Source of the DNA: an uncultured Gemmatimonadota bacterium
GTDB taxonomy: Bacteria; JAAXHH01; JABIQT01
Direction of reading: 5' to 3'
Length of the DNA stretch: 64,000 nucleotides
NCBI GenBank assembly: GCA_964470965.1
Contig: CAYYIS010000001.1
Location: 79,247 to 143,246 of the forward strand
The position numbers were made by a program, and so were the translations under genes. Position 1 is the stretch's first letter, and each line of letters starts with the position of its first letter. Below are positions 21,084-54,069 of the stretch, piece after piece. Under the pieces are notes generated by a model, which was not told where the DNA came from, searched no databases, and saw nothing but the letters and a program-made list of their open reading frames with translations.

Positions 21084-21965
21084 TTAGTTCACCACCATGT
21101 CTTCCGGCCAAAAATACTGCTGCGGGTTGATCCCGTTACCGTAACGGCGAACTTCATAATGAAGATGGTACCCGTTTGCTCGTCCGGTTTTCCCCACTTT
21201 GCCTATAACATCCCGTCGTGAGACTTCCTTCCCGGATGCCACATCTATCGAGGACAGGTGGCCAAATCTGGTAATCAGACCGTTCTGATGATTGATTTCT
21301 ACATAGAGGCCCAGATAGGCATTTAACCCGGTTCTAGATACGATACCCTCTGCAGGGGCGTGTACCGGAGTGCCACGGGGGGCAGCTATGTCCACGCCGT
21401 TATGCATACGCCGCAGGCCGGTAAAAGGATCGTTACGCATACCGAACCGGCTCGTTGTCACACCGTTGACGGGCCTAACGGTTGGAATATGATTCCAGTA
21501 GGCCTGTGTTTCTGCGGCTTCCTGTTCGATTTCTTCCAGACTCGCGAGCGATAGCTCGGCTTCACGAATCAGTCTATCGAGAGTGTCCTGCAACTGGACC
21601 GACCTGGCAATCGGCGTACCCGGCCGTTCGAGCATGGGATCGTAGAACACACCCCCCACGCCGACCTGTCGTGTGTGGGGATGAATGTCCGGTAACCCGA
21701 CGATGATCCGGGCGTCCTGTTCCTCCTGGATTACCGAATCAAGCCGGGCCTTGTAGTGGTTACTGAGGAACTCCACTTCAATGAGCCGGTTCAGCAAATG
21801 GCTGTTTTTATATTGGTAATATATCGTTCCTACAGACCAGAATCCGACACCGACCAACCCAACGAGGCTGACCGCGAAAATGGTCAGCGCAATGTTACGC
21901 ATCCGATGTGATCTGCCGGAATGATGCGCCAGTAGCATCACCGTCACTCTGGGGAGTCTCGGCAC
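21084..21965 (-). CDS. M23 (LytM-type) metallopeptidase, membrane-anchored
   Basis: N-terminal TM helix, central coiled region, HNGVDIAAPRGTPV and GYHLHYEV zinc motifs. Confidence 0.85.
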   Translation of the reverse strand: MPRLPRVTVMLLAHHSGRSHRMRNIALTIFAVSLVGLVGVGFWSVGTIYYQYKNSHLLNRLIEVEFLSNHYKARLDSVIQEEQDARIIVGLPDIHPHTRQVGVGGVFYDPMLERPGTPIARSVQLQDTLDRLIREAELSLASLEEIEQEAAETQAYWNHIPTVRPVNGVTTSRFGMRNDPFTGLRRMHNGVDIAAPRGTPVHAPAEGIVSRTGLNAYLGLYVEINHQNGLITRFGHLSSIDVASGKEVSRRDVIGKVGKTGRANGYHLHYEVRRYGNGINPQQYFWPEDMVVN

Positions 21966-22157: not shown

Positions 22158-23105
22158 TTAGTCCACGATGTATTCTTCGGGGAAAAAATAGGATGAAGGA
22201 TCTACTATTCGGCCATTCTTTCTAACTTCATAATGAAGATGATAACTGGTCGCACGCCCGGTTTTACCAACCTGGCCGATCACCAAACCCCGTTCTACTT
22301 TTGCGCCGCGTTTTGTGCTGATGACTGAGAGGTGGCCATAACGAGTTGTGTATCCGTTTTGGTGGTCCACATCGACGAATCTACCATAATTGACGTCCAG
22401 TCCGGTTTTATATACGATGCCATTAGCGGTCACACGAACAGGTTCACCGCGATGCGCGGCGATATCGAAACCAGGGTGCAAACGGCGTAGTCCAGTAAAC
22501 GGATCATCACGCATACCGAACGGGCTGGAGGTCGGCCCGCCGACAGGTCGGACTGTCGGGATATGGAGCCAATACTCGCTATCTGCCTTTGCGCGTTCTT
22601 CTATTCCTTTCAAACTCGCTTTTTCCAACTGTACATCCCGGAGGAGGCGATCCAGTTTTTTACGAATAGAGGTGGCGTATGCTTCTGGTGATCCTGGTTC
22701 CTCTTGGGAAAGAAATAATTCCTTATAGCCACCAACACCCACCTCCCGTACGTCCGGATGGATATCCGGGAGACCGACCACGACCCGGGCGGCTTTTTCA
22801 CGCTCAACCAGTTCGGTCATCTTCTCTTCGAATGTTTCGGTTAGGGTGTCAAGCTCCTGAAGCCGAACCGTAAGCATTTCATTTTCCCGTTCCAGGTTCG
22901 CCAGTTTACCGCCATCGAAAATCGATACCACATAGGTGGATCCTATGCTCCAGACTCCCAGTACGAAGAGAAACGCCATCACCAGGATACAGCACAGCGC
23001 AAATGGCCCACCCAACTGTCGCGCACCATGCTTATTATGTGGAATCAGCAAAAGTGTAAAGCGTCTTCCTAGTGCCAAAAAAACAACCTCCTGCCTGTTA
23101 GTCAT
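22158..23105 (-). CDS. M23 (LytM-type) metallopeptidase, membrane-anchored (paralog)
   Basis: Same architecture as 21084-21965. HPGFDIAAHRGEPV and SYHLHYEV motifs. Confidence 0.85.
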   Translation of the reverse strand: MTNRQEVVFLALGRRFTLLLIPHNKHGARQLGGPFALCCILVMAFLFVLGVWSIGSTYVVSIFDGGKLANLERENEMLTVRLQELDTLTETFEEKMTELVEREKAARVVVGLPDIHPDVREVGVGGYKELFLSQEEPGSPEAYATSIRKKLDRLLRDVQLEKASLKGIEERAKADSEYWLHIPTVRPVGGPTSSPFGMRDDPFTGLRRLHPGFDIAAHRGEPVRVTANGIVYKTGLDVNYGRFVDVDHQNGYTTRYGHLSVISTKRGAKVERGLVIGQVGKTGRATSYHLHYEVRKNGRIVDPSSYFFPEEYIVD

Positions 23106-23666: not shown

Positions 23667-24524
23667 TCAGTTCATATATGAGCGTAAGCGCTGGCTGCGG
23701 GACGTGTGCCTGAGCCTTCGGATCGCCTTTTCTTTTATTTGGCGCACACGTTCCCGTGTCAGTCCGAACTGGGAGCCTATCTCTTCGAGGGTGAGGGAGC
23801 GGTCTGCGTTGATTCCAAAGTAGAGACTGATGACGTCGGCTTCCCGGTCTGTCAGGGAATCGAGAGCTCTGGTGATTTCTAATTTCAGAGATTCATCCAT
23901 CAATATCTCGTCTGGAGAGGTCTGCATATCGTCTTCGAGGATGTCCAGAAGTCGGTTGTCTTCACCTGGGGTAAACGGTGCGTCGAGCGACAGATGCCGG
24001 TTTGAGATCCGCATGGTGTCTACGATTTCAGATGGACTCATTTCAAGCGTTTCAGCGATTTCGTCCGCACTGGGTTCCCGTCCGTATTCCTGTTCCAAGT
24101 CGCTGGAGACCCGCCCGATCTTGTGCAGGGTCCCGACTCGGTTAAGAGGTAAGCGGACGATACGTGACTGCTCCGCGAGGGCCTGCAGGATTGCTTGCCG
24201 GATCCACCAGACAGCATAGGAAATGAATTTGAATCCTTTTGTCTCATCAAAACGCTTGGCGGCTTTGATAAGACCGAGATTGCCTTCGTTGATCAAATCC
24301 GTCAGATTAAGGCCCTGATTTTGGTACTGTTTGGCAACACTCACCACAAAGCGCAGGTTGGCCTTGGTAAGCTTCTCCAACGCATCTTCACTACCACCAT
24401 GAATGGAACGGGCTAACTCGATTTCTTCGTCTGCGGTCAGGAGGGGCACGTCCCCGATTTCCTGTAGATACTGATCCAGCGACTGTTCTTCTCTAGAATA
24501 TGTCTTATTCATAAATGTTGTCAC
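23667..24524 (-). CDS. rpoD: RNA polymerase sigma-70 family factor (short primary-like sigma)
   Basis: Regions 2-4 present: [59 protein letters not shown]. Confidence 0.85.
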
Positions 24525-24610: not shown

Positions 24611-25060
24611 TTAAGACTGCAAAACTTTAGCAAGTTCCTGAATGAGCTCCTCCCTTTTGGCTTTCGATATTTGCCTGCCATGTAACGACAGTCCGGACGT
24701 CTGTCTGGCCAGGCGTCTCAAATTTACCACGGTCATTTGCTCCAGTTCCTTTAGCGAATGATCTGGAGAAACGGTATCCACCGCCGCCGGACGGGTATCC
24801 TGCATGGTGCGCAGCTCGTCATGCGGCCTTGGAATCACATGTTGCGCAATTAGCTCGCCGACTTGCTCCGCCGCGGCCGCACCGGCATCCACTGCCGCAC
24901 GGACCGCCGCCACATTACCCGCGAAGGACACGGTGATCATGGCCGGATCGACGCGCTCTGTACCGACCAGCTGAACCTGCGCCGTCTTCAGTGCCGCATC
25001 CGCAGCTGTTATGGCGCCCACAAGTCCACGTGTTTCTATTAAACCGAGTGCTTCAGACAT
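24611..25060 (-). CDS. BMC-H shell protein with C-terminal Rho_N/HeH-like extension
   Basis: N-terminal BMC domain (ALGLIETRGLVGAITAADAALKTA...VIPRPH). Pore loop reads RVDPAM instead of KVGGGY. The tail MTVVNLRRLARQTSGLSLHGRQISKAKREELIQEL resembles the Rho N-terminal/SAP-like motif. Confidence 0.8.
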   Translation of the reverse strand: MSEALGLIETRGLVGAITAADAALKTAQVQLVGTERVDPAMITVSFAGNVAAVRAAVDAGAAAAEQVGELIAQHVIPRPHDELRTMQDTRPAAVDTVSPDHSLKELEQMTVVNLRRLARQTSGLSLHGRQISKAKREELIQELAKVLQS

Positions 25061-25065
25061 TTGGT

Positions 25066-25338
25066 CTACTCACCCGCAGGAAGAATCGATTCTACGTCGG
25101 AATGAGGCCGCGGAATAACATGTACCGATACAACTTCGCCTACACGCTCCGCGGCCGCTGCTCCGGCATCCGTTGCTGCTTTAACCGCACCCACATCACC
25201 ACGTACCATCACGGTTACATAACCGCCGCCGACCTTTTCTTTACCAACCAGCGTCACCTGAGCTGCCTTGACCATCGCGTCCGCAGCTTCGATTGAAGCG
25301 GTGAGCCCCCTCGTTTCTATCATCCCCAGTGCTTCCAA
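25066..25338 (-). CDS. BMC-H shell protein (PduA/EutM-like)
   Basis: [12 protein letters not shown]...[21 protein letters not shown]...VIPRPH; 90 aa. Confidence 0.92.
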
Positions 25339-25568
25339 ATTCGTATCTCCCTTCTCAATGTCACGTTGTTGGCTATGCGCCGAATTCCTGTAATATCATA
25401 ACTGAAAAATATACGTTTGTGGCCAATAGTCAACCAACATAAATCTTCGAAGTCAGCAATAATACGATGTAACTGTTTGTTTGTCAACACTTTTTAGCAT
25501 AAAAATGATGTACGGGTTGTATTGTAACCTCCGTAGGGACAACAAATTGAACGTATCTCGCAGCACGT

Positions 25569-26822
25569 TTACAGAACCGGCAACATACCGGAAACATCGA
25601 ACGTCAACGGTTGAGGTTTACCGACAATTTCCAGATCGGCACGGGAATTGGCCTCATCCAGAAGAGCCTCCGAGACATCGACCTCCCCTACGTGAAGAGT
25701 ATCCATGATACGTACCATTCGGCTTTCAGCAGGCCGTTTCATTCCGATCGTAGAGAGCGCCGCTTCGATCACTTTTTCATCCGTATCGAAATAGACTGGA
25801 ATCCTGGACTTCTGCGGGCTCATACCGGTAATGGAGTTCACATAGGTGTACTCTGTATTGATCTGATCCACCAGTCGCTTCGTGGTGAAATCCGCCAGTC
25901 CGATCCCCACCGCATTGCCTTCACTTTCCGGTGTCAGGTCTCTTACAAATATACGCAGGATACGCGGTGTTGAGGGCTCGTCTTCAAAATTCTGCATGCG
26001 CCGGCCGATGACGTTGGTGTCCATGCCGGTGCCGCTGATATTTTTGCCCATCTTATCCACGACGAGAATGTCGATATCCTCAAACGGTAGTTTCGGCATC
26101 AATCGTTTCGACTCCTGAAAAAGTGCTCGTTCCCGAGCTTCCAGACCCTCCACCGGAATGCCGACTACATGGGCTGTCTGGTCGTATGCATTTTCTACGA
26201 TCGCCATCCCGAACGCTACCGGCGTCTTAACGATCACCTGGCGCGCCACCGAGGTGATCATTCGCTCGAATCCGTATTGGAACACAGCACCGTGGTAATA
26301 ACTGGCTCCCTTCTGCTTTCCGAGCCCGATGGCCATCATCTTCATCAGGCCGCTGCCGATGTCCCCTTCAAAATCGGTGTGCGGCTTGACCCGGTTGACA
26401 AACACTATATGGTCCGCCTGCAATGCATTGCGATCCACGAATACCGGGAGGCCGTCATCCGTCTCTGCGATCAGCTCAGGTTCGATGTCCGATTTCAACG
26501 GGCACCCCATGCCCGTTTCCGTGATTCCATAATGCGCCAACACCCGGAGTTGGCCTTCCGATGTTGCACCGCCGTGGCTGCCCATAGCCGGAACAATGAA
26601 AGGTTCCATGCCGGCGTTCTGAAGCGCGATGACCGTGTTGCGAACGATAGTGCCGTAATTAGTGATTCCCCGGCTTCCCGCGGCAACCGCTACGGTTCCT
26701 CCGGCCTTCATGCCGGCTTCCTTGATCATTCTGCCCGCTTCCGCCTGGGTGGTTCCCGGGATGTCCTGTACCACCGGTGCTTCAAAGTGCTGCCTTAAAC
26801 GGGCGATGTTAGGATACTCCAT
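25569..26822 (-). CDS. lactate-racemase N-terminal-domain-like (DUF2088-like) protein
   Basis: 417 aa. Motifs GSRGI, PAMGSHGGAT.EGQ, NRVKPHTDF.G..GSGLMKM.AIGLGKQKGA, recalled as typical of the LarA_N-like family. Assignment is from memory only. Confidence 0.45.
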   Translation of the reverse strand: MEYPNIARLRQHFEAPVVQDIPGTTQAEAGRMIKEAGMKAGGTVAVAAGSRGITNYGTIVRNTVIALQNAGMEPFIVPAMGSHGGATSEGQLRVLAHYGITETGMGCPLKSDIEPELIAETDDGLPVFVDRNALQADHIVFVNRVKPHTDFEGDIGSGLMKMMAIGLGKQKGASYYHGAVFQYGFERMITSVARQVIVKTPVAFGMAIVENAYDQTAHVVGIPVEGLEARERALFQESKRLMPKLPFEDIDILVVDKMGKNISGTGMDTNVIGRRMQNFEDEPSTPRILRIFVRDLTPESEGNAVGIGLADFTTKRLVDQINTEYTYVNSITGMSPQKSRIPVYFDTDEKVIEAALSTIGMKRPAESRMVRIMDTLHVGEVDVSEALLDEANSRADLEIVGKPQPLTFDVSGMLPVL

Positions 26823-26835
26823 AGTGTTTCCCTTC

Positions 26836-28206
26836 CTAAATTCCGTTAATGAACCGTCCCGGGTTTAACGTCCGTCGCGGGTCGAAGCGGTCCTTGATCT
26901 GTTTCATCATGCCCCCGTCGTTGCGGGGTGTTCCCCAGACGCTTATTCGTTCCTTGAGGGCCACCGGAGCGTGATCAATCGTCAGGCCGCCGGCCATGTC
27001 CGAAGCTGCTGCGGTCAATTCTGCAAGAATAGATGCCAGGATATCCACAGTTTTATCATCGAACGGTTTCTCAAGATAGAATACTAGTGTCATTGCACCG
27101 TTGCCGAAATGGGAGAGCATGGCGCAACCGACCGGCTGGTTTTTACAACGATCCTCGGCCGTCTGATATAGTCTACCAAGGTCTTCAGGTGGCACACTCG
27201 CCCGACAGACAATTCCCGGCAGCATACCATGCGGCACCGCCTGCCCTGTAGGAATATCCTGGATCACCTCCAGGGTGAGATCGTAAAGGGCGTCCTTAAC
27301 GGAAATTACCTGGGTCGCCCCCATGGTTTCACACAGTTTTCTGGCATCTGCCATCTGCCATTCGACCGATTCCTCCGGTCCGAAGGCACCGATTATGAGC
27401 GGAAACCCCGTATCTCCAAGGCCTCTGCCGGCGCGCCGTGCCAAGATCGCCACCGGTACCGGGTTGGCCATTTCTATAAAACCGGGCGTGATGTCCGAAT
27501 CCAGAACCTGCTGTGCCGCCTCCGTGGCAGTGGATATGGAAGGAAAACGGCCGATAACCGCCTGCCCGGTCTCTGGTTTCGGTTGCACTTTGAGCGTCAC
27601 CTCCACCAGGATACCCAGCGTACCCAGCGCCCCGATATACATCTTATTGAGGTCGTATCCAGCCACATTTTTAACCACTTTGCCGCCGGCTTTCACTACG
27701 GTACCATCCGCCTGCACCACTTTCGTTCCGATCACCAGATCCCTTGCCGTGCCGTACATCCAGCGAAGCGCACCGCTTGAATTGGTAGAGAGAACACCGC
27801 CAATAGTGCAAGTGTCAGAGTGGGGAGGGTCGAGCGGAAAATATTGACCTCCCTGTGCAAGATCCGCCTGCAGGTCTGCCAGCCGAATGCCAGCCTGCAC
27901 GGTTGCCGTCATATCCGCTGGTGCATATTCGATGACCTGGTTCAGTCGCTCCAGGGAAACAATCAGGTCCACCCTTTCCGGAGGCATGCCCAGATCCATC
28001 TTGGTGCCACCGCCCCGGGGCGCCACCTTCAGCCCCTTTTCCGATGCAAACCCTATCACTGCTGCCAGCGTCTCCACGCTATCCGGTGCCACGACCGCGT
28101 CGGGGGCAACACCGTCTATGGTCTGATCCGCCAGTGTGGCCTCATCAGCAGGAATGTAGTCGGAAACGATTGTTTTGAGATCTTTCTGGAGGTCTGCTAA
28201 TCTCAT
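26836..28206 (-). CDS. FAD-binding PCMH-type oxidoreductase (GlcE / FAD-linked oxidase-like)
   Basis: PRGGGTKMDLG and VKNVAGYDL motifs. Its start overlaps the stop of the upstream activase gene (ATGA). Confidence 0.75.
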   Translation of the reverse strand: MRLADLQKDLKTIVSDYIPADEATLADQTIDGVAPDAVVAPDSVETLAAVIGFASEKGLKVAPRGGGTKMDLGMPPERVDLIVSLERLNQVIEYAPADMTATVQAGIRLADLQADLAQGGQYFPLDPPHSDTCTIGGVLSTNSSGALRWMYGTARDLVIGTKVVQADGTVVKAGGKVVKNVAGYDLNKMYIGALGTLGILVEVTLKVQPKPETGQAVIGRFPSISTATEAAQQVLDSDITPGFIEMANPVPVAILARRAGRGLGDTGFPLIIGAFGPEESVEWQMADARKLCETMGATQVISVKDALYDLTLEVIQDIPTGQAVPHGMLPGIVCRASVPPEDLGRLYQTAEDRCKNQPVGCAMLSHFGNGAMTLVFYLEKPFDDKTVDILASILAELTAAASDMAGGLTIDHAPVALKERISVWGTPRNDGGMMKQIKDRFDPRRTLNPGRFINGI

Positions 28207-30149
28207 GTCAAGTCCATCGGCATCGGTTTAAACTGACAGGCTTCCACAAAGATCTCGAAGAAATCGGGCATGGTTTCAAGCTCTATATGTTCTACGGATT
28301 TGACCAGGCCCTCCAGCGCATTCCTTTTGCGTTGTGACAGCAGCACCTCTCGGGCGCCTTGCACTGCAGCGTTGCCTACCTTGACGATACGATTTTCAGG
28401 TACAGGCGCTAGGAAGCCGATGTCTATGGCGTTGGAGACATTCACGTAGTTTGCGAATCCTCCGGCCAGATGCAGTCGGTCCACATCGGCAGGAGAGATG
28501 CCGAACGCCCGCATGACTATATACTGACCACAGTAGTTGGCCGCCTTAGCCTGCGCCAGGTTGCTGGCGTCTTCACGGGACAACGTGAGGTTGTGGTCCG
28601 GAACGACGACCATTTCATATTGTTTCCGGTCGGCGAACACCCCTTTAGGTGTCATCTGCCCATGGCGACGCAATTCCGCCAGAAGATCGATCAGTCCGGA
28701 GCCACAGATACCTCGGGGTGGTAGGTCGCCAATGGTGCGCCAGTTGAAAATGCCATTATGCCATCGGATCGATTCGATGGCACCCTCGTAACCGGGCATA
28801 CCATATCGTATGCCCCCGCCTTCGAATGCAGGGCCAGCCGGACAGGATGCAGCGATAATGCGTCCACCGCCCGCCACGACTACCTCGGTGTTGGTTCCCA
28901 CATCCACCAGCATGGAAATTCCGTCCTGTTTGTCAAGGTCAGTGGCCGCCAGATCCGCGGCCACATCGCCGCCCACATGACTGGCGATCAGTGGCAGGCC
29001 GTAAGCCTTTGCTTTCGGATTAACCCGGATACCGATCCGCCGGGTGCTCTGAACGAGGGCCGTGGTGTCCCGCTCTCCCGCGAGGAACTCGTGCTCCACG
29101 ATCGACTTGTAGGGCTTCTGGCCTATGCTCTGGACGTCCAGTCTGAACAGGATATCACGCATGGTGGAATTGCCGGCTACCACCACTTCATAGATTTCCT
29201 GACGCACGAACCCCAGGCGTTCGGTTAGTTCCTGAATTTCATGGTTGATGGCATTGACCACGGATTTGCGCAGCTCTCCCTGAAACGAGCCGTCATAAGT
29301 AATCCGGTACATCACATCGCTGCCGCCAAACCGCTGCGGATTCTCGAAGGAACTGACATGGACGCTCCGGCCGGATTCCAGGTCCACCAGGTCCATCACT
29401 ATCGTGGTGGTGCCCAGGTCGATAGCCAGTCCGTACAAGCGGCCGCGATAGGTGTCGATCGGTCCACCCTCGTAGTACACCGTATCTCCTTCCCGAGTGA
29501 CTACCGGATCAATCGAGATCCGTTTGTCGTTTGTGAGCGTAAGGATTTTGGGGGTGCGCCGCAGAGGGGTGAACTCGATCAACGCGTCGGCGTCGGCGAC
29601 TTTTGCCTGGCAGGCGAGCCGGTAATTGTCCCGGAGAAACGACTCCGCTTCGGTCCGTGGTTCCAGCGCGTCGACGCCCTGGGTGATCTCGACGATACAC
29701 TCGTGGCAAAGAGCAGAACGCCCGCAGGAGGTAGGCACCTGGACCGCCAACTCGTCAGCATACTCGAAAACAGTGCGTCCTGCAGCCAGCTTTCGGAACG
29801 CACCGTCGTGGGATATGACACCTTCGCCGTAAACGATGGCCGCATCCTCGTGGCCTGGTAGGCCTTCCACGATAGCAGCTGTTCCCGTTTCCCAGGCCTT
29901 ACGGTAATCCAGCTTGTCGTCCCCGCCGCAAAGCATCCGCCCATCCTTCTCACGGGGTTTGCGCTGATTCCGACATCCAAATTTGGCCGTGCATTCATCG
30001 AACCGATTCTTGTACGGACAACGGTACGTCGCCTGCTCGTCCGCATGCACCATCATCTCCGAGAACAGCTCTGTGATCCGGTCCAGGCGCTTCTGGTATT
30101 CGTCTTTGTCTATTTTTTGCATGGGGATATATATTTTTTGAATTTCCAA
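28203..30149 (-). CDS. corrinoid reductive activase (RACo/RamA-type: [2Fe-2S] ferredoxin plus ASKHA ATPase, DUF4445) with Cys-rich N-terminal extension
   Basis: Ferredoxin motif SCGRSALCHECIVEI...RLACQAKV. ASKHA motifs GLAIDLGTTTIV, VAGNSTM, LVDVGTNTEVV, SCPAGPAFEGGGI, GICGSGLIDL, LAGGFANY. About 95 extra N-terminal residues carry 5 Cys. Confidence 0.85.
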   Translation of the reverse strand: MEIQKIYIPMQKIDKDEYQKRLDRITELFSEMMVHADEQATYRCPYKNRFDECTAKFGCRNQRKPREKDGRMLCGGDDKLDYRKAWETGTAAIVEGLPGHEDAAIVYGEGVISHDGAFRKLAAGRTVFEYADELAVQVPTSCGRSALCHECIVEITQGVDALEPRTEAESFLRDNYRLACQAKVADADALIEFTPLRRTPKILTLTNDKRISIDPVVTREGDTVYYEGGPIDTYRGRLYGLAIDLGTTTIVMDLVDLESGRSVHVSSFENPQRFGGSDVMYRITYDGSFQGELRKSVVNAINHEIQELTERLGFVRQEIYEVVVAGNSTMRDILFRLDVQSIGQKPYKSIVEHEFLAGERDTTALVQSTRRIGIRVNPKAKAYGLPLIASHVGGDVAADLAATDLDKQDGISMLVDVGTNTEVVVAGGGRIIAASCPAGPAFEGGGIRYGMPGYEGAIESIRWHNGIFNWRTIGDLPPRGICGSGLIDLLAELRRHGQMTPKGVFADRKQYEMVVVPDHNLTLSREDASNLAQAKAANYCGQYIVMRAFGISPADVDRLHLAGGFANYVNVSNAIDIGFLAPVPENRIVKVGNAAVQGAREVLLSQRKRNALEGLVKSVEHIELETMPDFFEIFVEACQFKPMPMDLT

Positions 30150-30212
30150 TCTTGTATATTGATAATTTGTTTCAGCACGTCTTCAAGAGTTGGCATATCA
30201 GCTTCAACGGTG

Positions 30213-30240
30213 TCAAAACGCAGGAGTCTCTGCGTTTTGA
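30213..30240. repeat. perfect 11-bp inverted repeat (possible bidirectional terminator or operator)
   Basis: TCAAAACGCAG-gagtct-CTGCGTTTTGA inside an AT-rich spacer, about 65 nt upstream of the activase start. Confidence 0.35.
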
Positions 30241-30876
30241 AAGGAAAAGGTGGTTTGTGCTGTGCATCATTACTTCTGAAAATCAATAGGTAGTCAATAT
30301 CTTGACAATGATATCTGGAAAATAACCTTATGGCCCGCGCCGTTTTCCATATCGATATTTCAAATATATTGCAGAGTGGCCCATCCACAAACACCAGGGA
30401 GCCACACTCATTTGACTGGCCTAAAGGCCGGACTCGATTGCGGCATCTCTTGTGATCCGGCTTCTGGTGTGACGATATTTGGACTCCTTCCGGCTGTCTA
30501 TGTAGGACTGAATGTCCATCCGCGGCATGTTCCACGAAATGATGTGATTTGAGTTGTGTTACCCCTTGATGGTTTCACGGTGTTGCCCAACGGCTGCGTC
30601 GTCAGGCCGGAAGCGCATCAGGCGCTCCGGGTGGTTGCGCAGATTTCCGGAAGAGATTTTTGTGGCGGTCCATCGCTTGAGGCGGGTGGGTTCAGCGAAG
30701 TGGACTCGCTCCATACTAACGGCGCACAGGAGGCGGCGAATAGTGTTGTGGGCCGAGGTGTATGAGGCCGTGAGTGTTATCTTAAAATTTTACCGAGGGG
30801 ACGTTGTAAATATTTTGAGTCGTCACAGCCGGATCAAATCGTCTCAAATGTCACCCTCCCGCCTTCATCCATGCTT

Positions 30877-31641
30877 CTATCCGCCTTGCTCCTCTTTCAA
30901 TTCTTCCAGCAGGCGCTTGGCCAGGTCTACGCAGGCGACGGCGTCCTTACCGGTGCCGTCGGCGCCCATGTCGTCGGCGAATTCCTGCGTTACCGAGGCG
31001 CCACCGACCATGATTTTTACATCGTCGCGCAAATCCGCGTCGATGAAGGCGTCAATGGTTTTACCCATGTTGGGCATGGTGGTGGTGAGCAGGGCCGACA
31101 TACCGACCAGCGGTGCTTCGTGCTCTTCCACTGCGTCGATGAATTCGTCCTCGGAGGTATCCACGCCTAGATCGTGTACCTCCATGCCAGAGCCGCGCAG
31201 CATCATGATGCACAAGTTTTTTCCGATGTCATGCAGGTCACCTTTGACCGTCCCCATGATGACCGTCCCGATGGGCTTGATGCCCGAGGCGGACAGTATC
31301 GGTTCGATGTAGGCCATGCCGGCCTTCATGGCCCGGGCGCAGGCAAGGACTTCCGGGACGAATATGAAGTTCTCCCGGAACTTGATCCCTACGATACTCA
31401 TTCCGGCGATGAGCCCGTCATCCATGATCTCCAACGCGTCGGTGCCCGCATCGAGAGCAGCACCGGTCATTTCATCTACACTGTTGTTGTCACCATCAAT
31501 GAGTGCCGCGGCTATTTCCTGCATGGCCGGCGACGTTCCGGAAAATACATTGATGATACGCTCCCGGTCAGCGGGAGCTTCAATAAATTCCTCTATCTCA
31601 TCCCTGATAAACTCATTCTCTATCGCGTTTATGTCCGGCAT
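30877..31641 (-). CDS. corrinoid (cobalamin-binding) methyltransferase carrier protein
   Basis: B12-binding cap helix bundle followed by a Rossmann domain with the DxHxxG motif (KGDLHDIGKNL) and MSALLTTT. GAGGAAG lies before the ATG. About 35 extra N-terminal residues. Confidence 0.88.
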   Translation of the reverse strand: MPDINAIENEFIRDEIEEFIEAPADRERIINVFSGTSPAMQEIAAALIDGDNNSVDEMTGAALDAGTDALEIMDDGLIAGMSIVGIKFRENFIFVPEVLACARAMKAGMAYIEPILSASGIKPIGTVIMGTVKGDLHDIGKNLCIMMLRGSGMEVHDLGVDTSEDEFIDAVEEHEAPLVGMSALLTTTMPNMGKTIDAFIDADLRDDVKIMVGGASVTQEFADDMGADGTGKDAVACVDLAKRLLEELKEEQGG

Positions 31642-31667
31642 TACTTCCTCTCATTCTGTGCTTGTTT

Positions 31668-32711
31668 TTACGCCGCATGCTCCATATGCCATTCCCGGAC
31701 TGCGATCGGAATTTCTTTGAGGTTTTCGATTGAGGTTTGCAGCGGGATGGCACATTCCGGACCTACCAGCTGTACACCGGAATCCAGGTTCTTGTAGACT
31801 TCGGCACGTACCTCTTCTGGCCCGCGGGCGAACAGCGTTTCGGGATTGTTAATGTTTCCCACCAGCGAAATGCGTTCCTTCACCACATCCATAGATTCGT
31901 CCGGTTCGTTCTTGGAGTCGTAGTGAAAAGCGGCAAAACCCGTCTGTGCGATGTAATCCATCCGGTCCACGGTCCGACCACAGATATGCATAATCAACGG
32001 TATAGGAATCCGCTCTACAAGTTCAATGTGCAGGTCGAGTAAAAACCGTTTGTAGTACTCACCGCTGACCAGATCGCCGGTTGCATGGTCCGGTAGCGTC
32101 AGGGCGTCAGCGCCGGCCTCTATCTGTGCGATGCCGAATTCTATGGTGGCTTCTTTCATGCGGTCCAGCGCCAGCTTGGTCCTGCCGGGATCGTCCAGGG
32201 ACAGGAGCAGAAACGGTTCGACGCCGAAGCAATGGTAGCCCAGTGACCACGGTCCCATTGTTTTGCCAATGACGGCCACTTCATCACCGTATTCTTTCTT
32301 AAGCTTTGTAATAGCGTCAAGTACACACTTTGTATCTTGATGGGTCAGATAGTCCGATGGGATCTTGATGTCGTCCGCATCTTCCCAGATAGGCTCACCC
32401 ATTTTCACGGTCGGCCAGTTGTCCTTTTGCTCCCACTGAATATTGCAGCCCAGGGCCGATGACTCCTGTATAATAGTAAATACCGGCATGATGGAATCAA
32501 ACCCGAGTTCGGTGTATCCGGTCGCAGCCAGGCGGGCCATCAGTTCGGGATTCCGGTTGGCTTCCGGAAACGGCGCGTCTACCAGGTCCATCAGTTCCAC
32601 GGTGGCGACGGACGTGGGATTGCACACGGGCGTACGATCCACCGGTTTCCTGTCAAGCGCAGCCAGCACGCGTTCGCGTCCTGTCATAGGGGGTACGGTT
32701 GTTATGGTCAT
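31668..32711 (-). CDS. URO-D-family methyltransferase (MtaA/MtbA/CmuA-like methylcobamide methyltransferase)
   Basis: N-terminus MTGRERVLAALDRKPVDRTPV, 347 aa TIM-barrel family pattern, HICG motif. Sits next to the corrinoid protein gene. Confidence 0.75.
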   Translation of the reverse strand: MTITTVPPMTGRERVLAALDRKPVDRTPVCNPTSVATVELMDLVDAPFPEANRNPELMARLAATGYTELGFDSIMPVFTIIQESSALGCNIQWEQKDNWPTVKMGEPIWEDADDIKIPSDYLTHQDTKCVLDAITKLKKEYGDEVAVIGKTMGPWSLGYHCFGVEPFLLLSLDDPGRTKLALDRMKEATIEFGIAQIEAGADALTLPDHATGDLVSGEYYKRFLLDLHIELVERIPIPLIMHICGRTVDRMDYIAQTGFAAFHYDSKNEPDESMDVVKERISLVGNINNPETLFARGPEEVRAEVYKNLDSGVQLVGPECAIPLQTSIENLKEIPIAVREWHMEHAA

Positions 32712-32760
32712 GGTTGTCCTTATTTTCCAAGGGTTGTACCTGATGAATTTTATCCTTGAT

Positions 32761-33399
32761 TTACCTGTCCTGCTGACTCGGGGCGGCTAAAACGCCCCGG
32801 GAGGTGGTGGCTTCCTGTTCCCGCAGGGCAGCTCGGACATTTGGGGCACGCACTAGCAGGAGTCCGAGCATGGCATCATGAGGCTGGCCACACGGAAAAC
32901 TGATCAGGTCGAGACGCTGTCCCTCCTCTTTCATCTGTCCCAGCTTCATCAGGCCGCCGGCAATGAACGAGATGCGTTTTACCTTATCTTTCCCTTCGCC
33001 CTCCGCGATGACCTGATACCGGCCGTTTTCTTGGCTGACGATTTTCATCGTGTCCCCGGACTTCTTATCAAAAACCTGCAATGGCCGTGGTGTCAGTTTC
33101 TTATCCGAAGGCAGTTTGCAGGCTTCCAGGAATACGCGTTTTATCGCCAGTTCATGTTCCTGGCCGCACGGGAATCGGAGCAACCCGTCTGAATCGACGT
33201 CCATGCCACCCAGGAAACACATGGCGTTGTTCAGGAATGCGACGCGTCCCGATGCGGCTTCCAGGCCGCTGTACGTATGCACCAGGTACGCAGGTCCCGC
33301 ATCCTGAGACTGACGGTACAGAGCGATAGAGATATCATGACAGTGCGGATCCATGGGCACCAGTTCGATACGTCTGCCTATTTCAAGGGTCTGACCCAT
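32761..33399 (-). CDS. hypothetical protein with internal two-fold repeat (FPCGQxH motif twice)
   Basis: Repeat 1: RVAFLNNAMCFLGGMDVDSDGLLRFPCGQEHELAIKRVFLEA. Repeat 2: RISFIAGGLMKLGQMKEEGQRLDLISFPCGQPHDAMLGLLLVRA. I chose ATG 33399 (GAGG upstream) over the 33453 ORF start. I recognise no family. Confidence 0.55.
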   Translation of the reverse strand: MGQTLEIGRRIELVPMDPHCHDISIALYRQSQDAGPAYLVHTYSGLEAASGRVAFLNNAMCFLGGMDVDSDGLLRFPCGQEHELAIKRVFLEACKLPSDKKLTPRPLQVFDKKSGDTMKIVSQENGRYQVIAEGEGKDKVKRISFIAGGLMKLGQMKEEGQRLDLISFPCGQPHDAMLGLLLVRAPNVRAALREQEATTSRGVLAAPSQQDR

Positions 33400-33412
33400 A
33401 CGGTATACCTCG

Positions 33413-33688
33413 CTAATTGATACAGAACCATTTACTATTGTACTCGCGCTCAATTTCCTCTATTAGTGCTTCCATAACGATTTCGGCACTGCCGGACCGT
33501 TCCTTTTTTTCCGTCCATCGCCACTGATCCAGGTATGCATCTGTGCCGGCCAGACCTTCCGCCATGGCTACCCGGTCGATTTCAAACTGGAACCATTCCG
33601 GCATCTGGCGGTTCACCGGCCGCTTGCCATGGTAGACTCTAACTTGCGCGGGTATGTCTCTCCAATAGAGAACCTGATAGACCGTCAT
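33413..33688 (-). CDS. small corrinoid-cluster-associated protein ('virulence factor' domain-like, YWRDIP motif)
   Basis: 91 aa, MTVYQVLYWRDIPAQVRV... I recall this small domain family as co-occurring with or fused to B12-binding domains. From memory, unverified. Confidence 0.5.
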   Translation of the reverse strand: MTVYQVLYWRDIPAQVRVYHGKRPVNRQMPEWFQFEIDRVAMAEGLAGTDAYLDQWRWTEKKERSGSAEIVMEALIEEIEREYNSKWFCIN

Positions 33689-33748
33689 TGAACGTCTTAC
33701 CTATTAATTCATCGATCATTAGAAAAGGCGGTAGACCTATGGATCAAT

Positions 33749-34765
33749 CTAATCCGCCTGCACGATTCTGGACCGTTCGTCCACCACCTGGCGGAACGCA
33801 CGGATATGCTCAGGGCCAGTGCCGCAGCAACCCCCTACCATAAACGCGCCTGCGTCAAGGAGTTCAGGGAGATAGCTTGCCATCTCCTCCGGGCTTTGTG
33901 AATAGTAGGTGTTGTGGTTTTCGTCGAGTTGGGCTTTGCCCGCGTTGGGGTGAGTCATCATGTGCTTCGGTTTCATGCCTCGCTGTTCCATTGCAGCGCT
34001 CAGCTGCCGGGTGCCGATGATCGCATAGGGCATACCTGTATGCTCATCCCGTCTCGACTCCGCGCCGCAGTTAAGGCCCAGAAGCTGGACGCTGTCCAGG
34101 AGGTCCACGCCATCGGACAACTCTCCACTGGCGAGAATGTCCAGAAGATCCACCGCGGAATTGCCCCAGTCTGTCTTGTAGATCACGTTTCCGGTATCGC
34201 GGTCCTTTGTGTATTTGTATGTCAGGTTCACCGCAATAGGGAGACCGAACTGGCGGATCATATCAACTGCTATGGCCGCCTCTTTGGCAGAAAACATGGT
34301 TTCTATGCAGAAAAAATCCACACCGCTTTCCGCGAGGATGGCCGCCACCTTCTCATGGGCGTCTCTGGCCACTTGGTTTGGGATGCCGAATACCGTGTCG
34401 CCGCTATCCGCCTCGATGGCGCCCGGCAGCGGACCGATCGAACCGCCCAAATACACCTCTTTCTCACTTCGTTCGATGGCTGCCCTGGCCAATTCCACCG
34501 AACGCCTCACAAGGTTATCCGACTCCGATGGGTCTTTGTCGGCCATCTCTAGATGTGGGAAAGACGCCACGAACGTGTTGGTTTCTATAGCATCCGATCC
34601 CGCTTCGATATAATCAAAATGGATATCCGTCACTGCTTCCGGATGCAGCTCATTCGCAAGTGCGCTGTTCGCCAGTTCGATCCCCCTGGCAAACAACTGA
34701 GATCCGAATCCCCCGTCGAAAATAATCGGATCGGGATCGTTTAGTCTATCTATGAATGACTTCAT
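33749..34765 (-). CDS. homocysteine S-methyltransferase-domain protein (MetH module-1-like)
   Basis: FDGGFGSQL, ETNTF, zinc-ligand Cys motifs GLNCG and GGCCGTGPEHI; 338 aa, single domain. Confidence 0.85.
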   Translation of the reverse strand: MKSFIDRLNDPDPIIFDGGFGSQLFARGIELANSALANELHPEAVTDIHFDYIEAGSDAIETNTFVASFPHLEMADKDPSESDNLVRRSVELARAAIERSEKEVYLGGSIGPLPGAIEADSGDTVFGIPNQVARDAHEKVAAILAESGVDFFCIETMFSAKEAAIAVDMIRQFGLPIAVNLTYKYTKDRDTGNVIYKTDWGNSAVDLLDILASGELSDGVDLLDSVQLLGLNCGAESRRDEHTGMPYAIIGTRQLSAAMEQRGMKPKHMMTHPNAGKAQLDENHNTYYSQSPEEMASYLPELLDAGAFMVGGCCGTGPEHIRAFRQVVDERSRIVQAD

Positions 34766-35727
34766 GATGCCGTTGCCTGTCCTTCAAAATTGATCTCGCC
34801 TCTTACGTTCATCTCCATCGGACGCAGGCTGTGATATATGAATGTATTGATCGGTGTCTCTACGCCAGTTTCCTGTCCCATCCGTACTACGGCACCCACC
34901 TGGTTTTCGAGTTCCGAGTATCGGCCGGCCATCACGTCCCGTTGCATGGATGCTGTACCGCCGTATTCCACGCTGTCCAGGATAGCCATGGTTTTAGCCA
35001 CGATATCTTCGGGCAGCGCTATGTTCCTGGCCTTCGCCACCGCATGAATTTCTTCCATAGCCCTCTCCAACAGACGGCGCGTGCCGGGCTGGCTGCGCAC
35101 CGCACCGATGGGTGCCCGGGTCACACCGCCTACGCCGCTCCACGAGGCGATGAGAATGTATTTGCGCCACATAGCCGCCTGGATGTCCTGGGGTGCATCC
35201 ACGATCAGGCCCTTTGCACGGGAAAATGCCTCATGCAATTTATCGACCCGACCGCTCCGTCGGTTGTCCCATTCCCCGAAGTTGACAAACGGTTCATAAG
35301 CCACATGCTGAATATAGCCGGGACCGGCTTTGAACGAAACGATACCGCATACGCCGCCCAACACGTGTTTCCATCCCAGCACCTCGGCCAGTTGGCCCGG
35401 TGCTTCCACGCCATTTTCCATAGGGAGCACGTAAGTATCCGGGCCGATCATCGGGCGTATGGCCTCCGCCGCCTCAGATACCTGCCAGCATTTAACGCAG
35501 ACGATAACCACATCGACGATGCCTGCCTCAACCGGGTCATCGGTAGCATCTACCGGCTTTACTACGAAGTCACCTTTGGTGCTCTCGACCTTTAACCCAT
35601 GTTTCCGCATCGTCTGAAGATGCTCTCCACGGGCTATAAACACCACATCTTCACCTGCTTCGGCAAGACGACCGCCATAGTAGCCTCCGACACCGCCTGC
35701 ACCGAACACCGCAATCCGCACGTTCAC
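34762..35727 (-). CDS. ketopantoate-reductase-family (PanE/ApbA) NAD(P)H oxidoreductase
   Basis: IAVFGAGGVGGYYGGRLAEAG Rossmann motif, 321 aa. 4-nt overlap with the downstream Hcy-methyltransferase gene. Confidence 0.75.
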   Translation of the reverse strand: MNVRIAVFGAGGVGGYYGGRLAEAGEDVVFIARGEHLQTMRKHGLKVESTKGDFVVKPVDATDDPVEAGIVDVVIVCVKCWQVSEAAEAIRPMIGPDTYVLPMENGVEAPGQLAEVLGWKHVLGGVCGIVSFKAGPGYIQHVAYEPFVNFGEWDNRRSGRVDKLHEAFSRAKGLIVDAPQDIQAAMWRKYILIASWSGVGGVTRAPIGAVRSQPGTRRLLERAMEEIHAVAKARNIALPEDIVAKTMAILDSVEYGGTASMQRDVMAGRYSELENQVGAVVRMGQETGVETPINTFIYHSLRPMEMNVRGEINFEGQATAS

Positions 35728-35794
35728 CTCCTGGACAAATTACACCATTATCGGTCCGTCAATATATAGGTTGCCATCTATTATCGCAACACCA

Positions 35795-36784
35795 TCATTC
35801 TTCCAGCCATGATTTGACTCGGGGATGGTGCATTACTTCCGGATTGAGGATGTGCTCCGGGCGTCGTCCCTGGATAGCATCCGTGACCTGTTCGATGCCC
35901 TTGGCATCCAGACGCATGGTTGACTCTACCGTGATGCCGGCGTTATGGTTGGTACATATAATTCGTGGGTGACCCTTGTGTACCTCGCGGCTACCGTTAA
36001 CGGGATCATCCACAACATAATAATGGAGTTTCTCTTCTTTTATCGCCCTGTTGACACCATCATCGTCCACAAGGTTGCCACGCGATGGGTTTATCAGGGA
36101 TGCGTGCGGTTTCATCCTGCTGAGTAGGTCATAATGGATGATGGTGTCATCGCCCGAGACATGCAGGCAGACGGTGTCGCATGCCTGGAAGAGTGCCTCC
36201 GGCGTGTCGACAACTTCCGCGTCGTATTTTGCGGCCACTTCAGCGATATCAGGCCGGACGTCATACATGAGCAGACGGCCTTTTTTGCCGAGAAGAGGCC
36301 TGGCTCTCATTGCCACCTCCTGGCCTATGCGGCCGCAACCGTAAAGTCCCAGCGTCGTATGCTGCGCTTCGTAGGTGCGGATGATGGAGAAATCGCCCCG
36401 GTGGGAGAGGTAGTTGAGTGTATACAACCGCTTGAGAGTGGCCATCCACTGGGCGATAGTGTATTCAGCCACGGCGTCCATATGCACCGGCGTTACCGTG
36501 ACGATCACCCCGTAACGTGTAGCCGCCGGTATGTTTACCTGGTCGAATCCTACGCCCCAGCGAGCCACGACGCGCAGATCTGAAGCGGCTTCATAGAATT
36601 CATCCGAATAATATGAAGAACTGGCGATCGAAGCGATAACGCCGGGGGCGTGCTCTGCCCCTAGTGTTTTCGGCTCATCCATCAGCTCTCCCAGGGTACT
36701 CAGGTGGGCCAGCCCCCGCTGCCGTTCCTCCGAAGCAAACTCATCATTCCTGAACTGTGCCGTGAGCATTATTTTATATGGCAT
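35795..36784 (-). CDS. D-isomer-specific 2-hydroxyacid dehydrogenase family protein
   Basis: GLYGCGRIGQEVA NAD motif, NPSRGNLVD, C-terminal catalytic His region. Confidence 0.8.
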   Translation of the reverse strand: MPYKIMLTAQFRNDEFASEERQRGLAHLSTLGELMDEPKTLGAEHAPGVIASIASSSYYSDEFYEAASDLRVVARWGVGFDQVNIPAATRYGVIVTVTPVHMDAVAEYTIAQWMATLKRLYTLNYLSHRGDFSIIRTYEAQHTTLGLYGCGRIGQEVAMRARPLLGKKGRLLMYDVRPDIAEVAAKYDAEVVDTPEALFQACDTVCLHVSGDDTIIHYDLLSRMKPHASLINPSRGNLVDDDGVNRAIKEEKLHYYVVDDPVNGSREVHKGHPRIICTNHNAGITVESTMRLDAKGIEQVTDAIQGRRPEHILNPEVMHHPRVKSWLEE

Positions 36785-45990: not shown

Positions 45991-46190
45991 CCCAATTCCT
46001 TCTCAAAGCCCTCAATAATATGATTTAAACAGTCCACAGTCAAGTCAAATCTTAACCATAACATAAGGATTTGATTAAAGGTTATGCTATGTTTACGACC
46101 GTGATTTTTCAGGTCAGGATTGACACGGTACTCTACAGACCCTATTGTAAAGAAGCTTTTAGACCATGCGACCGTTATGAGGAGCCTGTC

Positions 46191-46904
46191 TTGAATTCAA
46201 TAGTGGTATTTGCAAAGGATCCACGGCCCGGATCCGTTAAGACGCGCCTCACGCCGTTTCTATCGCCGGAAGAAGCGGCTGATCTCTATAAGGCGTTGAT
46301 CCGGGACACGCTTCGGACAGCATTATGCGTGCCCGGGGCGCAAACCAGGGTCGCGTTCACGCCGGAAGAAGCGGAGACGTCCCTCTGGTCGCTGGCCGAA
46401 AGCAAAGCGATCGAATGGTTTCCTCAGTCCGGCGATTCTTTAGGCTCTCGGCTTCAGGCAGCATTCCACCATGCTTTTCAACATGGTGCCTCCCGGGTGG
46501 TGACGATCGGCAGTGACTGCCCGTCCTTACAGCCTTCCGTACTGTCATTGGCTCTCGATGCTCTGTCGGGATCGGATGTGGTGCTGGGACCTGCCACGGA
46601 CGGTGGCTATTATCTAATTGGATTGGCCAACAAGGGATCCGAAAACGATCGGTATAGAACGCTATTCAAGGATATCGCCTGGAGTACGGAAACAGTCTAT
46701 GAGCAGACACTCGAGGCCATTGACGACCTTAGGCTTTCGCTCATGGAACTCCCGGAGTGTTCCGATGTGGATCAGCCGGCGGATCTCCTGCGGCTGATCC
46801 GTCAGATTCGGTCGCACAGGGATGCCGGTGATCTGGAATTCGCAATGCATACGGAGCCCAAGCTTCACGCCCTCCGCGCTAGAATCGAAACGGCATCAAT
46901 ATGA
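46191..46904 (+). CDS. DUF2064-family (nucleotidyl/glycosyl-transferase-like) protein
   Basis: IVVFAKDPRPGSVKTRLTP...A..LY.A...DT pattern. TTG start 6 nt after GAGGAG. Stop overlaps the next start (ATGA). Confidence 0.65.
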   Translation: MNSIVVFAKDPRPGSVKTRLTPFLSPEEAADLYKALIRDTLRTALCVPGAQTRVAFTPEEAETSLWSLAESKAIEWFPQSGDSLGSRLQAAFHHAFQHGASRVVTIGSDCPSLQPSVLSLALDALSGSDVVLGPATDGGYYLIGLANKGSENDRYRTLFKDIAWSTETVYEQTLEAIDDLRLSLMELPECSDVDQPADLLRLIRQIRSHRDAGDLEFAMHTEPKLHALRARIETASI

Positions 46905-49222: not shown

Positions 49223-49236
49223 CTGGCGCCAACTCC

Positions 49237-50436: not shown

Positions 50437-50478
50437 CGTGTACAGGAGGGGCGAACTTGATGATAACCTGGAGTACCG

Positions 50479-51213: not shown

Positions 51214-51361
51214 GGGTTTCTGAAACTACGGACACCCCACTGATAAAAAAGACAGTAAATGTAGTTATTTTAATAATAAAGAGTTGATATTTTCCCCAGA
51301 TTGCATATTTTATCTGGTTCCGGATTCTACCGAATGACAATAGGATTAGAGAGGATTTTCC

Positions 51362-51628: not shown

Positions 51629-51685
51629 GACCCCGGATGTTATATTGGAATTGTATCACAAACAGCCCTACACTATGAGGTAGTC

Positions 51686-51991: not shown

Positions 51992-52018
51992 TCAAAGCAC
52001 CGATTATGGGAGTCGGTA

Positions 52019-53449: not shown

Positions 53450-53469
53450 CGCAGGATTACCGGGTTCTC

Positions 53470-53760: not shown

Positions 53761-53773
53761 TACAGGATGGCAT

Positions 53774-54049: not shown

Positions 54050-54069
54050 TTGCTGCGAGGAGGCGGGAG

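Follow-up and report, generated by a model that had tools for sequence, protein, structure and literature searches.

A satellite pair of microcompartment shell-hexamer genes in a Gemmatimonadota genome, one with a putative Rho_N/SAP-like C-terminal domain

The stretch of DNA analyzed here, referred to as the window, comprises 64,000 nt from an uncultured Gemmatimonadota bacterium (assembly GCA_964470965.1, contig CAYYIS010000001.1, positions 79,247 to 143,246). It contains two adjacent minus-strand open reading frames (ORFs), separated by 5 nt, that encode hexamer-forming shell proteins (BMC-H) of a bacterial microcompartment (BMC). This satellite pair is located about 23 kb from the main BMC locus, which starts at position 48359. 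One of the two proteins, 90 amino acids (aa) long, is a canonical BMC-H. The other, 149 aa long, has an altered pore loop and a C-terminal tail, for which an assignment to the helix-extended-helix (HeH) domains of the Rho_N/SAP kind is supported by the evidence given below. The pair and its upstream spacer include the following features.

24611-25060, minus strand: tailed BMC-H gene, 149 aa, ATG start; BMC domain, linker, and tail.
24800-25060, minus strand: BMC domain of the 149-aa protein (aa 1-87); Pfam BMC 92.9 bits, AlphaFold pLDDT 90-98.
24938-24955, minus strand: altered pore loop RVDPAM of the 149-aa protein, replacing KVGGGY, as read from the translation.
24755-24799, minus strand: disordered linker of 15 aa (aa 88-102, DTRPAAVDTVSPDHS), with low pLDDT and unconserved in orthologs.
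24614-24754, minus strand: C-terminal domain of 47 aa (aa 103-149, LKELEQMTVVNLRRLARQTSGLSLHGRQISKAKREELIQELAKVLQS), conserved and ordered, assigned to the HeH (Rho_N/SAP-like) kind.
25066-25338, minus strand: canonical BMC-H gene, 90 aa, TTG start; pore KVGGGY, edge motifs KAAQ and PRPH.
25339-25568, minus strand: AT-rich spacer of 230 nt between the gene for a LarA-family isomerase and the pair; contains a promoter and a ribosome-binding site (RBS).
25459-25487, minus strand: near-consensus sigma-70-type promoter, TTGACA-17-TATTAT, agreeing with the consensus at 11 of 12 positions.

Both proteins match the Pfam BMC family (PF00936) far above its cutoff of 24.5 bits, with 105.5 bits for the 90-aa protein and 92.9 bits for the 149-aa one. 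The 90-aa protein also passes the NCBIfam EutM model (140 bits vs. a cutoff of 133) and is 80% identical to the BMC-H encoded in the main locus at 51362-51628. The BMC domain of the 149-aa protein is 60% identical to its 90-aa neighbor and retains the residues of the hexamer edge, namely K25 (in LKTAQ) and R78-P79-H80. The 26 aligned family sequences all carry K25, H74, and R78, and nearly all carry P79. Judged from its sequence, the 149-aa protein keeps the edge residues required for facet tiling. The G-[GS]-G pore loop, which is a common but not strictly defining feature of BMC-H, is present in the 90-aa protein and absent from the 149-aa protein; the close family of the latter keeps the pore as RVDPA[LM] or R[VTA]D[PA][AG]L. 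The GC content is 0.39-0.41 in the spacer vs. 0.52-0.65 within both genes. These data bear out the layout given in a preliminary description of the window, which had been made from the sequence without database searches. That description had placed two BMC-H genes about 23 kb from the main locus, behind a 230-nt AT-rich spacer and downstream of an array of corrinoid and lactate genes, all of which were found. It had also described the 90-aa copy as canonical with the pore KVGGGY and the 149-aa copy as having the pore RVDPAM, in agreement with both translations.

About 25 full-length relatives of the 149-aa protein, 148-165 aa long and 57-89% identical to it, were found by homolog search. Across 24 full-length homologs in this identity range the tail is conserved, with the consensus LExMTVVxLRRLARQTxGxxLxGREISxAxRExLIxELARxL, while the linker is free in both length and sequence. 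In the AlphaFold2 model of the full-length monomer (pTM 0.56), pLDDT values are 90-98 for the BMC fold, below 50 for residues 90-98, and 87-94 for the C-terminal helical domain. The tail modeled alone has a pLDDT of 93.7 and forms helices at its residues 2-6, 10-19, 28-32, and 35-47, with the helices 10-19 and 35-47 flanking a loop and a short helix. Because the tail is conserved while the linker is not, and because it is ordered in the model, it does not represent a chance extension of the ORF. The net charge of the window tail is about +4, and the mean over 151 tails is +2.9. In the numbering of the diverse tail alignment, R15 and R19 are invariant and R29 is nearly invariant. The three conserved arginines belong to LR, AR, and GR motifs and are residues 115, 119, and 129 of the 149-aa protein. 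The tail contains no cysteine.

The preliminary description had likened the tail to the HeH motif of Rho_N- and SAP-type domains and had named conservation in orthologs and a search against these families as checks. The conservation is borne out by the relatives described above. In the family search, the window tail itself scored 14.6-16 bits (E-values of 0.012-0.034) with Pfam Rho_N (PF07498), under the gathering cutoff of 24.9 bits, but matches to the same families recur across the tails of other proteins. Thus, Rho_N was matched by 11 of the 22 close tails and was the top family, at sub-threshold scores, in 30 of the 45 diverse tails. SAP (PF02037) was matched by 7 close and 15 diverse tails, with a best E-value of 4.4e-4. 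No other Pfam family recurred among these 22 close and 45 diverse tails. The Rho_N scores of 14 inspected BMC-linked tails were 13.5-19.3 bits, all below 24.9, and five further BMC-linked tails had no Rho_N match at E ≤ 0.1. The sole strong hit in the set was found in P0152, a lysine-rich protein of 240 aa with three tandem HeH repeats and no BMC domain, in which one repeat passes the Rho_N gathering score (31.4 vs. 24.9 bits, E-value of 1.9e-7). As P0152 was retrieved by the BMC-tail profile (E-value of 1.7e-12) and also passes the Rho_N threshold, it forms a bridge between the BMC tails and Rho_N proteins.

Structural comparison points in the same direction. The best Foldseek match of the tail model in the PDB is Rho (9ff7_A, TMq 0.68, rmsd 1.7 Å, 44 columns), with many further Rho chains ranking below it. 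The top matches among the predicted viral structures of BFVD are Rho_N-like and SAP proteins, with probabilities of 0.96-0.99 and TMq of 0.7-0.8. Taken together, the recurrent sub-threshold Pfam matches, the bridge sequence, and the structural best matches support the reading of the tail as an HeH domain of the Rho_N/SAP kind, forming a divergent subfamily without its own Pfam model. Several results weigh against this assignment. Besides the sub-threshold Pfam scores of the window tail, all Foldseek E-values of the tail exceed 0.1, as the query has only 48 residues. A search of the PDB sequences with the tail profile gave nothing, and the same search with the diverse alignment gave one irrelevant weak match (1uhp_A, E-value of 0.25). 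An hhalign comparison of the tail profile with the N-terminus of Escherichia coli Rho was not significant (probability 0.4%).

The tail profile was further searched against 1.84 billion representative proteins, with clusters formed at 50% identity. In total, 704 clusters matched at E ≤ 1e-3 and 161 at E ≤ 1e-10, and the match was nearly always located at the extreme C-terminus. A BMC domain was recognizable in 105 of the best 150 clusters, and most of the remaining 45 are short ORFs. The existence of free-standing tail mini-proteins was not supported. The one long-contig case inspected (L022; GCA_964269045.1, contig CAXWMP010000001.1) has the same synteny, and its ruvX, BMC-H, tailed BMC-H, ybbR-like, and tmk genes are all split, which indicates indel errors in a frameshifted assembly rather than genuine stand-alone tail genes. 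Free-standing tails are thus regarded as mostly fragments of gene calls.

Homologs are labeled as Latescibacteria/Latescibacterota, Gemmatimonadota, and Ignavibacteriaceae, and a cluster-mate of the window protein at 90% identity is labeled Gemmatimonadota. The linkers of the wider family are 10-337 aa long (median 102) and rich in Glu and Lys. The pore loops of 96 tail-bearing proteins comprise 57 different four-residue motifs, with xPA found in 19 and GG in 30 of the 96. Because of this diversity, the altered pore is regarded as a feature of the lineage and not as a part of the module, and the altered pore and the tail were rejected as coupled features. The fusion of shell protein and tail is real and widespread, but neither new nor coupled to the altered pore. 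The tail is a hallmark of a large BMC-H subfamily present in several BMC types.

Two further groups of sequences were noted during these searches. A second conserved linker element, D-T-I-[SA]-R-L-R-x-E-A-L-G, was found in 32 of the 150 representatives, 45 of which are without a detectable BMC domain. The carriers (P0126, P0148, P0162, P0223, P0230, P0237, P0253, and others) have long linkers, and some of them are fragments. The D-T-I-[SA]-R-L-R element is amphipathic-helix-like, somewhat resembles an encapsulation peptide, and does not occur in the window protein. In the homolog list (P0015-P0120), many proteins of about 186-194 aa score like orthologs but cover only about 55% of the query. 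These proteins, some of them annotated as CcmO-like, are probably tandem two-domain BMC-T proteins of the same phyla (Latescibacterota, Gemmatimonadetes, Bryobacteraceae).

Transcription signals of the pair are conserved. The -35 hexamer together with the preceding A-tract (AAAAAG-TGTTGACAAA) is invariant in six relatives, and the -10-like box, the RBS AAGGGAG, and the unusual TTG start of the 90-aa gene are also conserved in relatives. No riboswitch or other known RNA was found in the AT-rich spacer, as the whole window has no Rfam match at gathering thresholds. No terminator-like site was found after the tailed gene. In the gap between this gene and the downstream sigma-70 gene, which is 21 nt long in L005, only the RBS and the start codon are conserved (GTG in five of six sequences, ATG in L006). 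The own promoter, the lack of a terminator-like site, and the little-conserved gap suggest that the pair forms an independent unit with a strong promoter and that transcription probably reads through into the sigma-70 gene. The genes surrounding the pair and the main BMC locus are as follows.

23667-24524, minus strand: sigma-70 family gene, 285 aa, regions 1.2-4 (Pfam regions 1.2, 2, 3, and 4).
25569-28206, minus strand: genes for a LarA-family nickel-pincer isomerase (group 22) and a GlcD/GlcE-like FAD oxidase, the conserved upstream neighbors.
48359-54357, plus strand: main BMC locus with genes for class II aldolase, AckA, phosphotransacylase (PTAC), BMC-H, pentamer-forming shell protein (BMC-P), aldehyde dehydrogenase (AldDh), a small ORF, and two further BMC-P.

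Eight related loci, including one from the Latescibacteria metagenome-assembled genome GCA_018667995.1, share a strict gene order: FAD oxidase(s), LarA-family nickel-pincer isomerase, BMC-H, tailed BMC-H, sigma-70 (285 aa), and M23 peptidase. The upstream part of this order (FAD oxidase and isomerase) is kept in L001, L002, and L005-L009. The sigma-70 gene is located directly 3' of the tailed BMC-H gene in all eight related loci. It is followed by one M23 peptidase gene in six of the eight loci and by two paralogs in the window (21084-21965 and 22158-23105, minus strand). The isomerase belongs to NCBIfam NF052515 (517.6 bits vs. a cutoff of 400), and the FAD oxidase has the Pfam domains FAD_binding_4 and FAD-oxidase_C. 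The best NCBIfam matches of the sigma-70 protein are the RpoD C-terminal and RpoS models, all below cutoff.

The array upstream of the pair contains both lactate-type genes, for the LarA-family isomerase and GlcD/GlcE-like FAD oxidases, and corrinoid genes, for RACo, a B12-binding protein, and a URO-D/MtaA-like methyltransferase. The corrinoid genes are part of a corrinoid/methyltransferase block (28203-36784, minus strand) between two GlcD-like FAD oxidase genes, which also includes a 230-aa ORF without a family and genes for homocysteine S-methyltransferase-like, ApbA/PanE, and 2-hydroxyacid dehydrogenase proteins. Since the oxidase genes are adjacent in L001, L008, and L009, this block looks like an insertion in the window genome.

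A standard BMC-H gene is located directly upstream of the tailed gene in the window and in L001-L010, L017, and L018. In other lineages, the dyad of BMC-H and tailed BMC-H is found between relA-ruvX and ybbR-tmk-ctpB (L017, L018, and L022), and in L004 it heads an AldDh-PTAC cluster. Without the dyad, the tailed gene was found in full loci with PduS and PduT, where it directly precedes AldDh (L019 and L021; in L021 next to PTAC), and alone in L020. Because these contexts range from housekeeping genes to full loci, the module is not bound to any single substrate pathway. A functional link specific to the sigma-70 factor or to the lactate-type enzymes was tested as well: this synteny is strict in one lineage, represented by the eight loci, but absent from the others, and is treated as context rather than mechanism.

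The main locus contains the gene set of an aldolase-type metabolosome, including a pfam00596 aldolase, PTAC, acetate kinase, BMC-H, three EutN/CcmL-like BMC-P, and an AldDh of the acylating type (641.7 bits on PRK15398 vs. a cutoff of 403). By this gene content it is classed as an aldolase-type (PVM/PVM-like/MUF2/MIC4) metabolosome, at the level of this group of types. The satellite pair presumably serves this locus. The LarA-family isomerase and GlcD-like oxidases flanking the pair could plausibly process lactate from the aldolase/AldDh/PTAC/AckA compartment.

Additional observations concern the main locus itself. The cargo genes, all on the plus strand, encode AldDh (52019-53449), PTAC (50479-51213), and the aldolase (48359-49222). 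The N-terminal extensions of AldDh and PTAC look like amphipathic helices (MNMNERQIQAIVQEVIAELGG and EERIKAVVRETVVRVLDQQ), and the aldolase exceeds typical FucA models by about 70 aa; all three enzymes likely carry encapsulation peptides. The small ORF between AldDh and the second BMC-P (53350-53760, plus strand) shares, as listed, 100 nt with the 3' end of the AldDh gene, and its true start is probably located further downstream. Its C-terminal 56 residues weakly match TIGR02536 eut_hyp (23.4 bits vs. a cutoff of 152.6). A gene of the IHF/HU family (100 aa, 54369-54671, plus strand) follows the third BMC-P after 12 nt on the same strand; its product scores 76 bits with the IHF-alpha and 73 bits with the IHF-beta model, both below the equivalog cutoffs. 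A gene for a DNA-bending protein at the end of the BMC locus is curious beside an HeH tail on the satellite shell protein. The flanks of the main locus (46071-48283 and 54686-55705, plus strand) contain a TIGR04282-family gene, which is arsenosugar-biosynthesis glycosyltransferase-like (DUF2064), a SelA-like gene (240.5 bits vs. a cutoff of 267.9), and an AIR-synthase-related gene with weak matches to SelD, HypE, and ThiL. No tRNA-Sec was found in the window, the only tRNA of which is tRNA-Gly(CCC) (63482-63569).

A mechanism can be proposed in which the satellite transcription unit would supply the metabolosome, whose genes are located 23 kb away, with two shell hexamers, with the 90-aa protein acting as an ordinary facet tile and the 149-aa protein as a specialized minor tile. 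In solved shells, the concave face of BMC-H points to the cytosol. Both termini of a canonical BMC-H are located on this concave face (PMC5534457). Six HeH domains per hexamer would thus be displayed on the outside. Judged by the analogous SAP, LEM-like, and Rho_N modules, they may bind a cytosolic partner that is either polyanionic or a protein. Chromosomal DNA would be the most likely partner, and the compartments would then be tethered to the nucleoid for spacing and inheritance. Expression of the pair would be separate from that of the substrate-responsive main locus and probably joint with that of the sigma-70 gene.

Since the usual ligands of HeH-type modules are DNA or RNA, and in some cases proteins, we favor, tentatively and at somewhat less than an even chance, a role of the tail in anchoring the compartments externally, most likely to the nucleoid, and thereby in positioning or partitioning them. 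The basic charge of the tail, its conserved arginines, the flexible linker, the generic genomic contexts, and the own promoter of the pair are all consistent with such a role. A number of points speak against it. HeH domains can bind proteins rather than DNA, as in the case of LEM and BAF. The orientation of the hexamer in its shell is an assumption. The highly acidic linkers of the long forms could be an intramolecular partner of the tail. In addition, the synteny with the sigma factor and the lactate enzymes comes from one lineage only and may be an inherited gene order.

It is rather unlikely that the tail is instead a protein-protein docking module on the outer shell surface, with a positioning ATPase or adaptor, a cytoskeletal element, enzymes that process the BMC product further (for lactate, e.g., the adjacent LarA-family isomerase and FAD oxidase), or neighboring compartments (resulting in clustering) as candidate partners. 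HeH-type domains do include protein binders, the tail is carried on long flexible, tether-like linkers, and the tailed gene directly precedes AldDh in L004, L019, and L021. In the lineage of the window the pair always adjoins the genes for the LarA-family isomerase and GlcD-like oxidases, and an aldolase/AldDh/PTAC/AckA compartment would release lactate (PVM pathway), which also counts for docking. Across lineages, however, only the standard BMC-H co-occurs with the tailed gene, and the promoter of the pair is its own and not shared with the lactate genes. A polyanion would suit the invariant surface arginines and the net positive charge no less well than a protein would.

That the altered pore RVDPAM is the functional element appears quite improbable. 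Here, the pore would tune permeability, as proposed for CcmK3/K4, and the tail would be an accessory with a minor or regulatory role, e.g., control of expression through RNA or DNA binding, on which there was once speculation for EutK. The close family indeed conserves a pore loop other than GGG, and the pair is probably co-transcribed with a sigma factor; permeability tuning has also been proposed as a general role of satellite shell genes in the BMC catalogue of Sutter et al. (2021; PMC8217296). On the other hand, the linkage to the sigma factor is confined to one lineage, and across the tail-bearing BMC-H the conserved element is the tail, while the pore is highly variable.

Finally, a lumen-facing tail that organizes or recruits cargo as a shell-borne counterpart of encapsulation peptides, an idea raised in the preliminary description beside tethering and one that the position of the tailed gene immediately upstream of AldDh in L004, L019, and L021 and the extra amphipathic-looking helix motif ([IL][SAE][RK]L[RKQ]xEA) of the 32 representatives might favor, is very improbable and the less likely of those two functions, because the C-terminus of canonical BMC-H is on the concave, cytosol-facing side, six tails on linkers reaching 337 aa would scarcely pass through a facet or find room beneath it, and the tail is a 45-aa ordered domain and not an 18-aa amphipathic helix. 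According to the catalogue, the FRAG genomes also have no encapsulation-peptide matches (PMC8217296).

The external-anchor reading can be extended further. In this extension, which we consider unlikely, a large unnamed subfamily of shell hexamers would carry a DNA-binding HeH anchor on the cytosolic face, and the nucleoid-tethered metabolosomes would be inherited without a ParA/McdAB-type system, with the pair expressed constitutively from housekeeping neighborhoods. Such a subfamily would span lineages of Latescibacterota, Gemmatimonadota, Ignavibacteriota, and beyond, using a near-consensus promoter shared with a sigma-70 gene in the window and a location between relA-ruvX and ybbR-tmk elsewhere. 

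To our knowledge, positioning and inheritance of metabolosomes are largely unknown outside the carboxysomes with their McdAB system, and we know of no function assigned to the "fragmented" BMC types of uncultured phyla. The "unknown extension" of the catalogue becomes a testable hypothesis, that of an outward-facing anchor for nucleic acid or protein. The new elements here are the recognition of one conserved domain, assigned to the HeH kind, without a Pfam family, the size of its family, its spread over BMC types, and the conserved promoter and housekeeping context. For BMC engineering, the tail offers a natural module for display on the shell surface, with native linkers of 10-337 aa.

Comparison with known systems places the 149-aa protein among several partial analogs. 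With the Rho_N and SAP domains, the tail shares the sequence pattern L..M.V..LR.LAR...G....GR.IS.A.R..LI..L and, in its predicted model, two main helices joined by an extended loop. In contrast to them, its loop is longer and includes an additional short helix and an invariant G-R, and its fusion partner is a shell protein instead of an OB-fold or nuclear protein. The tail was also considered as an encapsulation peptide; this candidate was rejected, since encapsulation peptides are amphipathic helices of about 15-20 aa, borne on flexible linkers by cargo enzymes, whereas the tail belongs to a shell protein and forms an ordered domain of several helices and about 45 aa.

EutK is a characterized BMC-H with a C-terminal helical domain. 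Its N-terminal BMC-H is followed, as in the 149-aa protein, by a linker and a C-terminal domain that is small, basic, and helical and is suspected to bind nucleic acid. The C-terminal domain of EutK is of the helix-turn-helix or winged-helix type, whereas the domain described here is assigned to the HeH type, and EutK further differs in host organisms and BMC type. With the NCBIfam EutK model, the 149-aa protein shows a match at residues 1-84 only, i.e., in the BMC domain (75 bits vs. a cutoff of 218). Identity of the tail with EutK_C (PF16365) was rejected, as no match was found in the window protein or the 22 close tails at E-values up to 10, nor in the 45 diverse tails at E-values up to 1. 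With EutK as a characterized precedent, 704 clusters in the profile search, and entries in the FRAG1, FRAG3, FRAG8, and MUF2 types of the catalogue, the implication of the preliminary description that the fusion has no precedent does not hold. The fusion is, in large part, both common and already classified, an outcome which that description had itself named as speaking against its proposal.

PduK and H_pumpkin of GRM6 are likewise specialized minor BMC-H with a C-terminal appendage beside a standard BMC-H, but their extensions carry Cys motifs for metal binding, which the cysteine-free tail lacks. CcmK3 and CcmK4 of the beta-carboxysome resemble the window pair as BMC-H genes located away from the main locus, regulated separately, and proposed to modify shell properties; they differ in having no appended domain, in the BMC type, and in forming heterohexamers. 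A possible functional analog of the tail is McdB of the McdAB system for carboxysome positioning, which is described as connecting a BMC shell with the nucleoid so that compartments are spaced and inherited (PMC8262871, PMC8359340). McdB is a separate adaptor that works via the ParA-type ATPase McdA, whereas the putative anchor described here is a covalent part of the shell tile; no ParA-type gene was noted at the loci examined.

The closest counterparts were found in the catalogue of Sutter et al. (2021), Supplementary Data 2 of which lists C-terminally extended BMC-H in FRAG1, FRAG3, FRAG8, and MUF2 (H_darkrose) (PMC8217296). [quoted passage not shown] These types share with the window a standard BMC-H paired with a C-terminally extended one, a satellite or fragmented location, and the phyla in which they occur (Ignavibacteria, Gemmatimonadetes, and candidate phyla). 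The catalogue assigns neither fold, family, nor function to the extension, and no assignment of the domain to a fold or function was found in a search of the literature outside subscription journals. The catalogue speaks of a location "by itself", whereas the tailed BMC-H of the window is located beside a standard BMC-H and lactate-type enzymes. The window pair has the standard BMC-H partner, the satellite location, and the ordered C-terminal extension of about 50 aa given in the catalogue, and the 149-aa protein, matched by description, likely belongs to the H_darkrose class. The window itself thus adds one more member to a catalogued but uncharacterized class of shell proteins.

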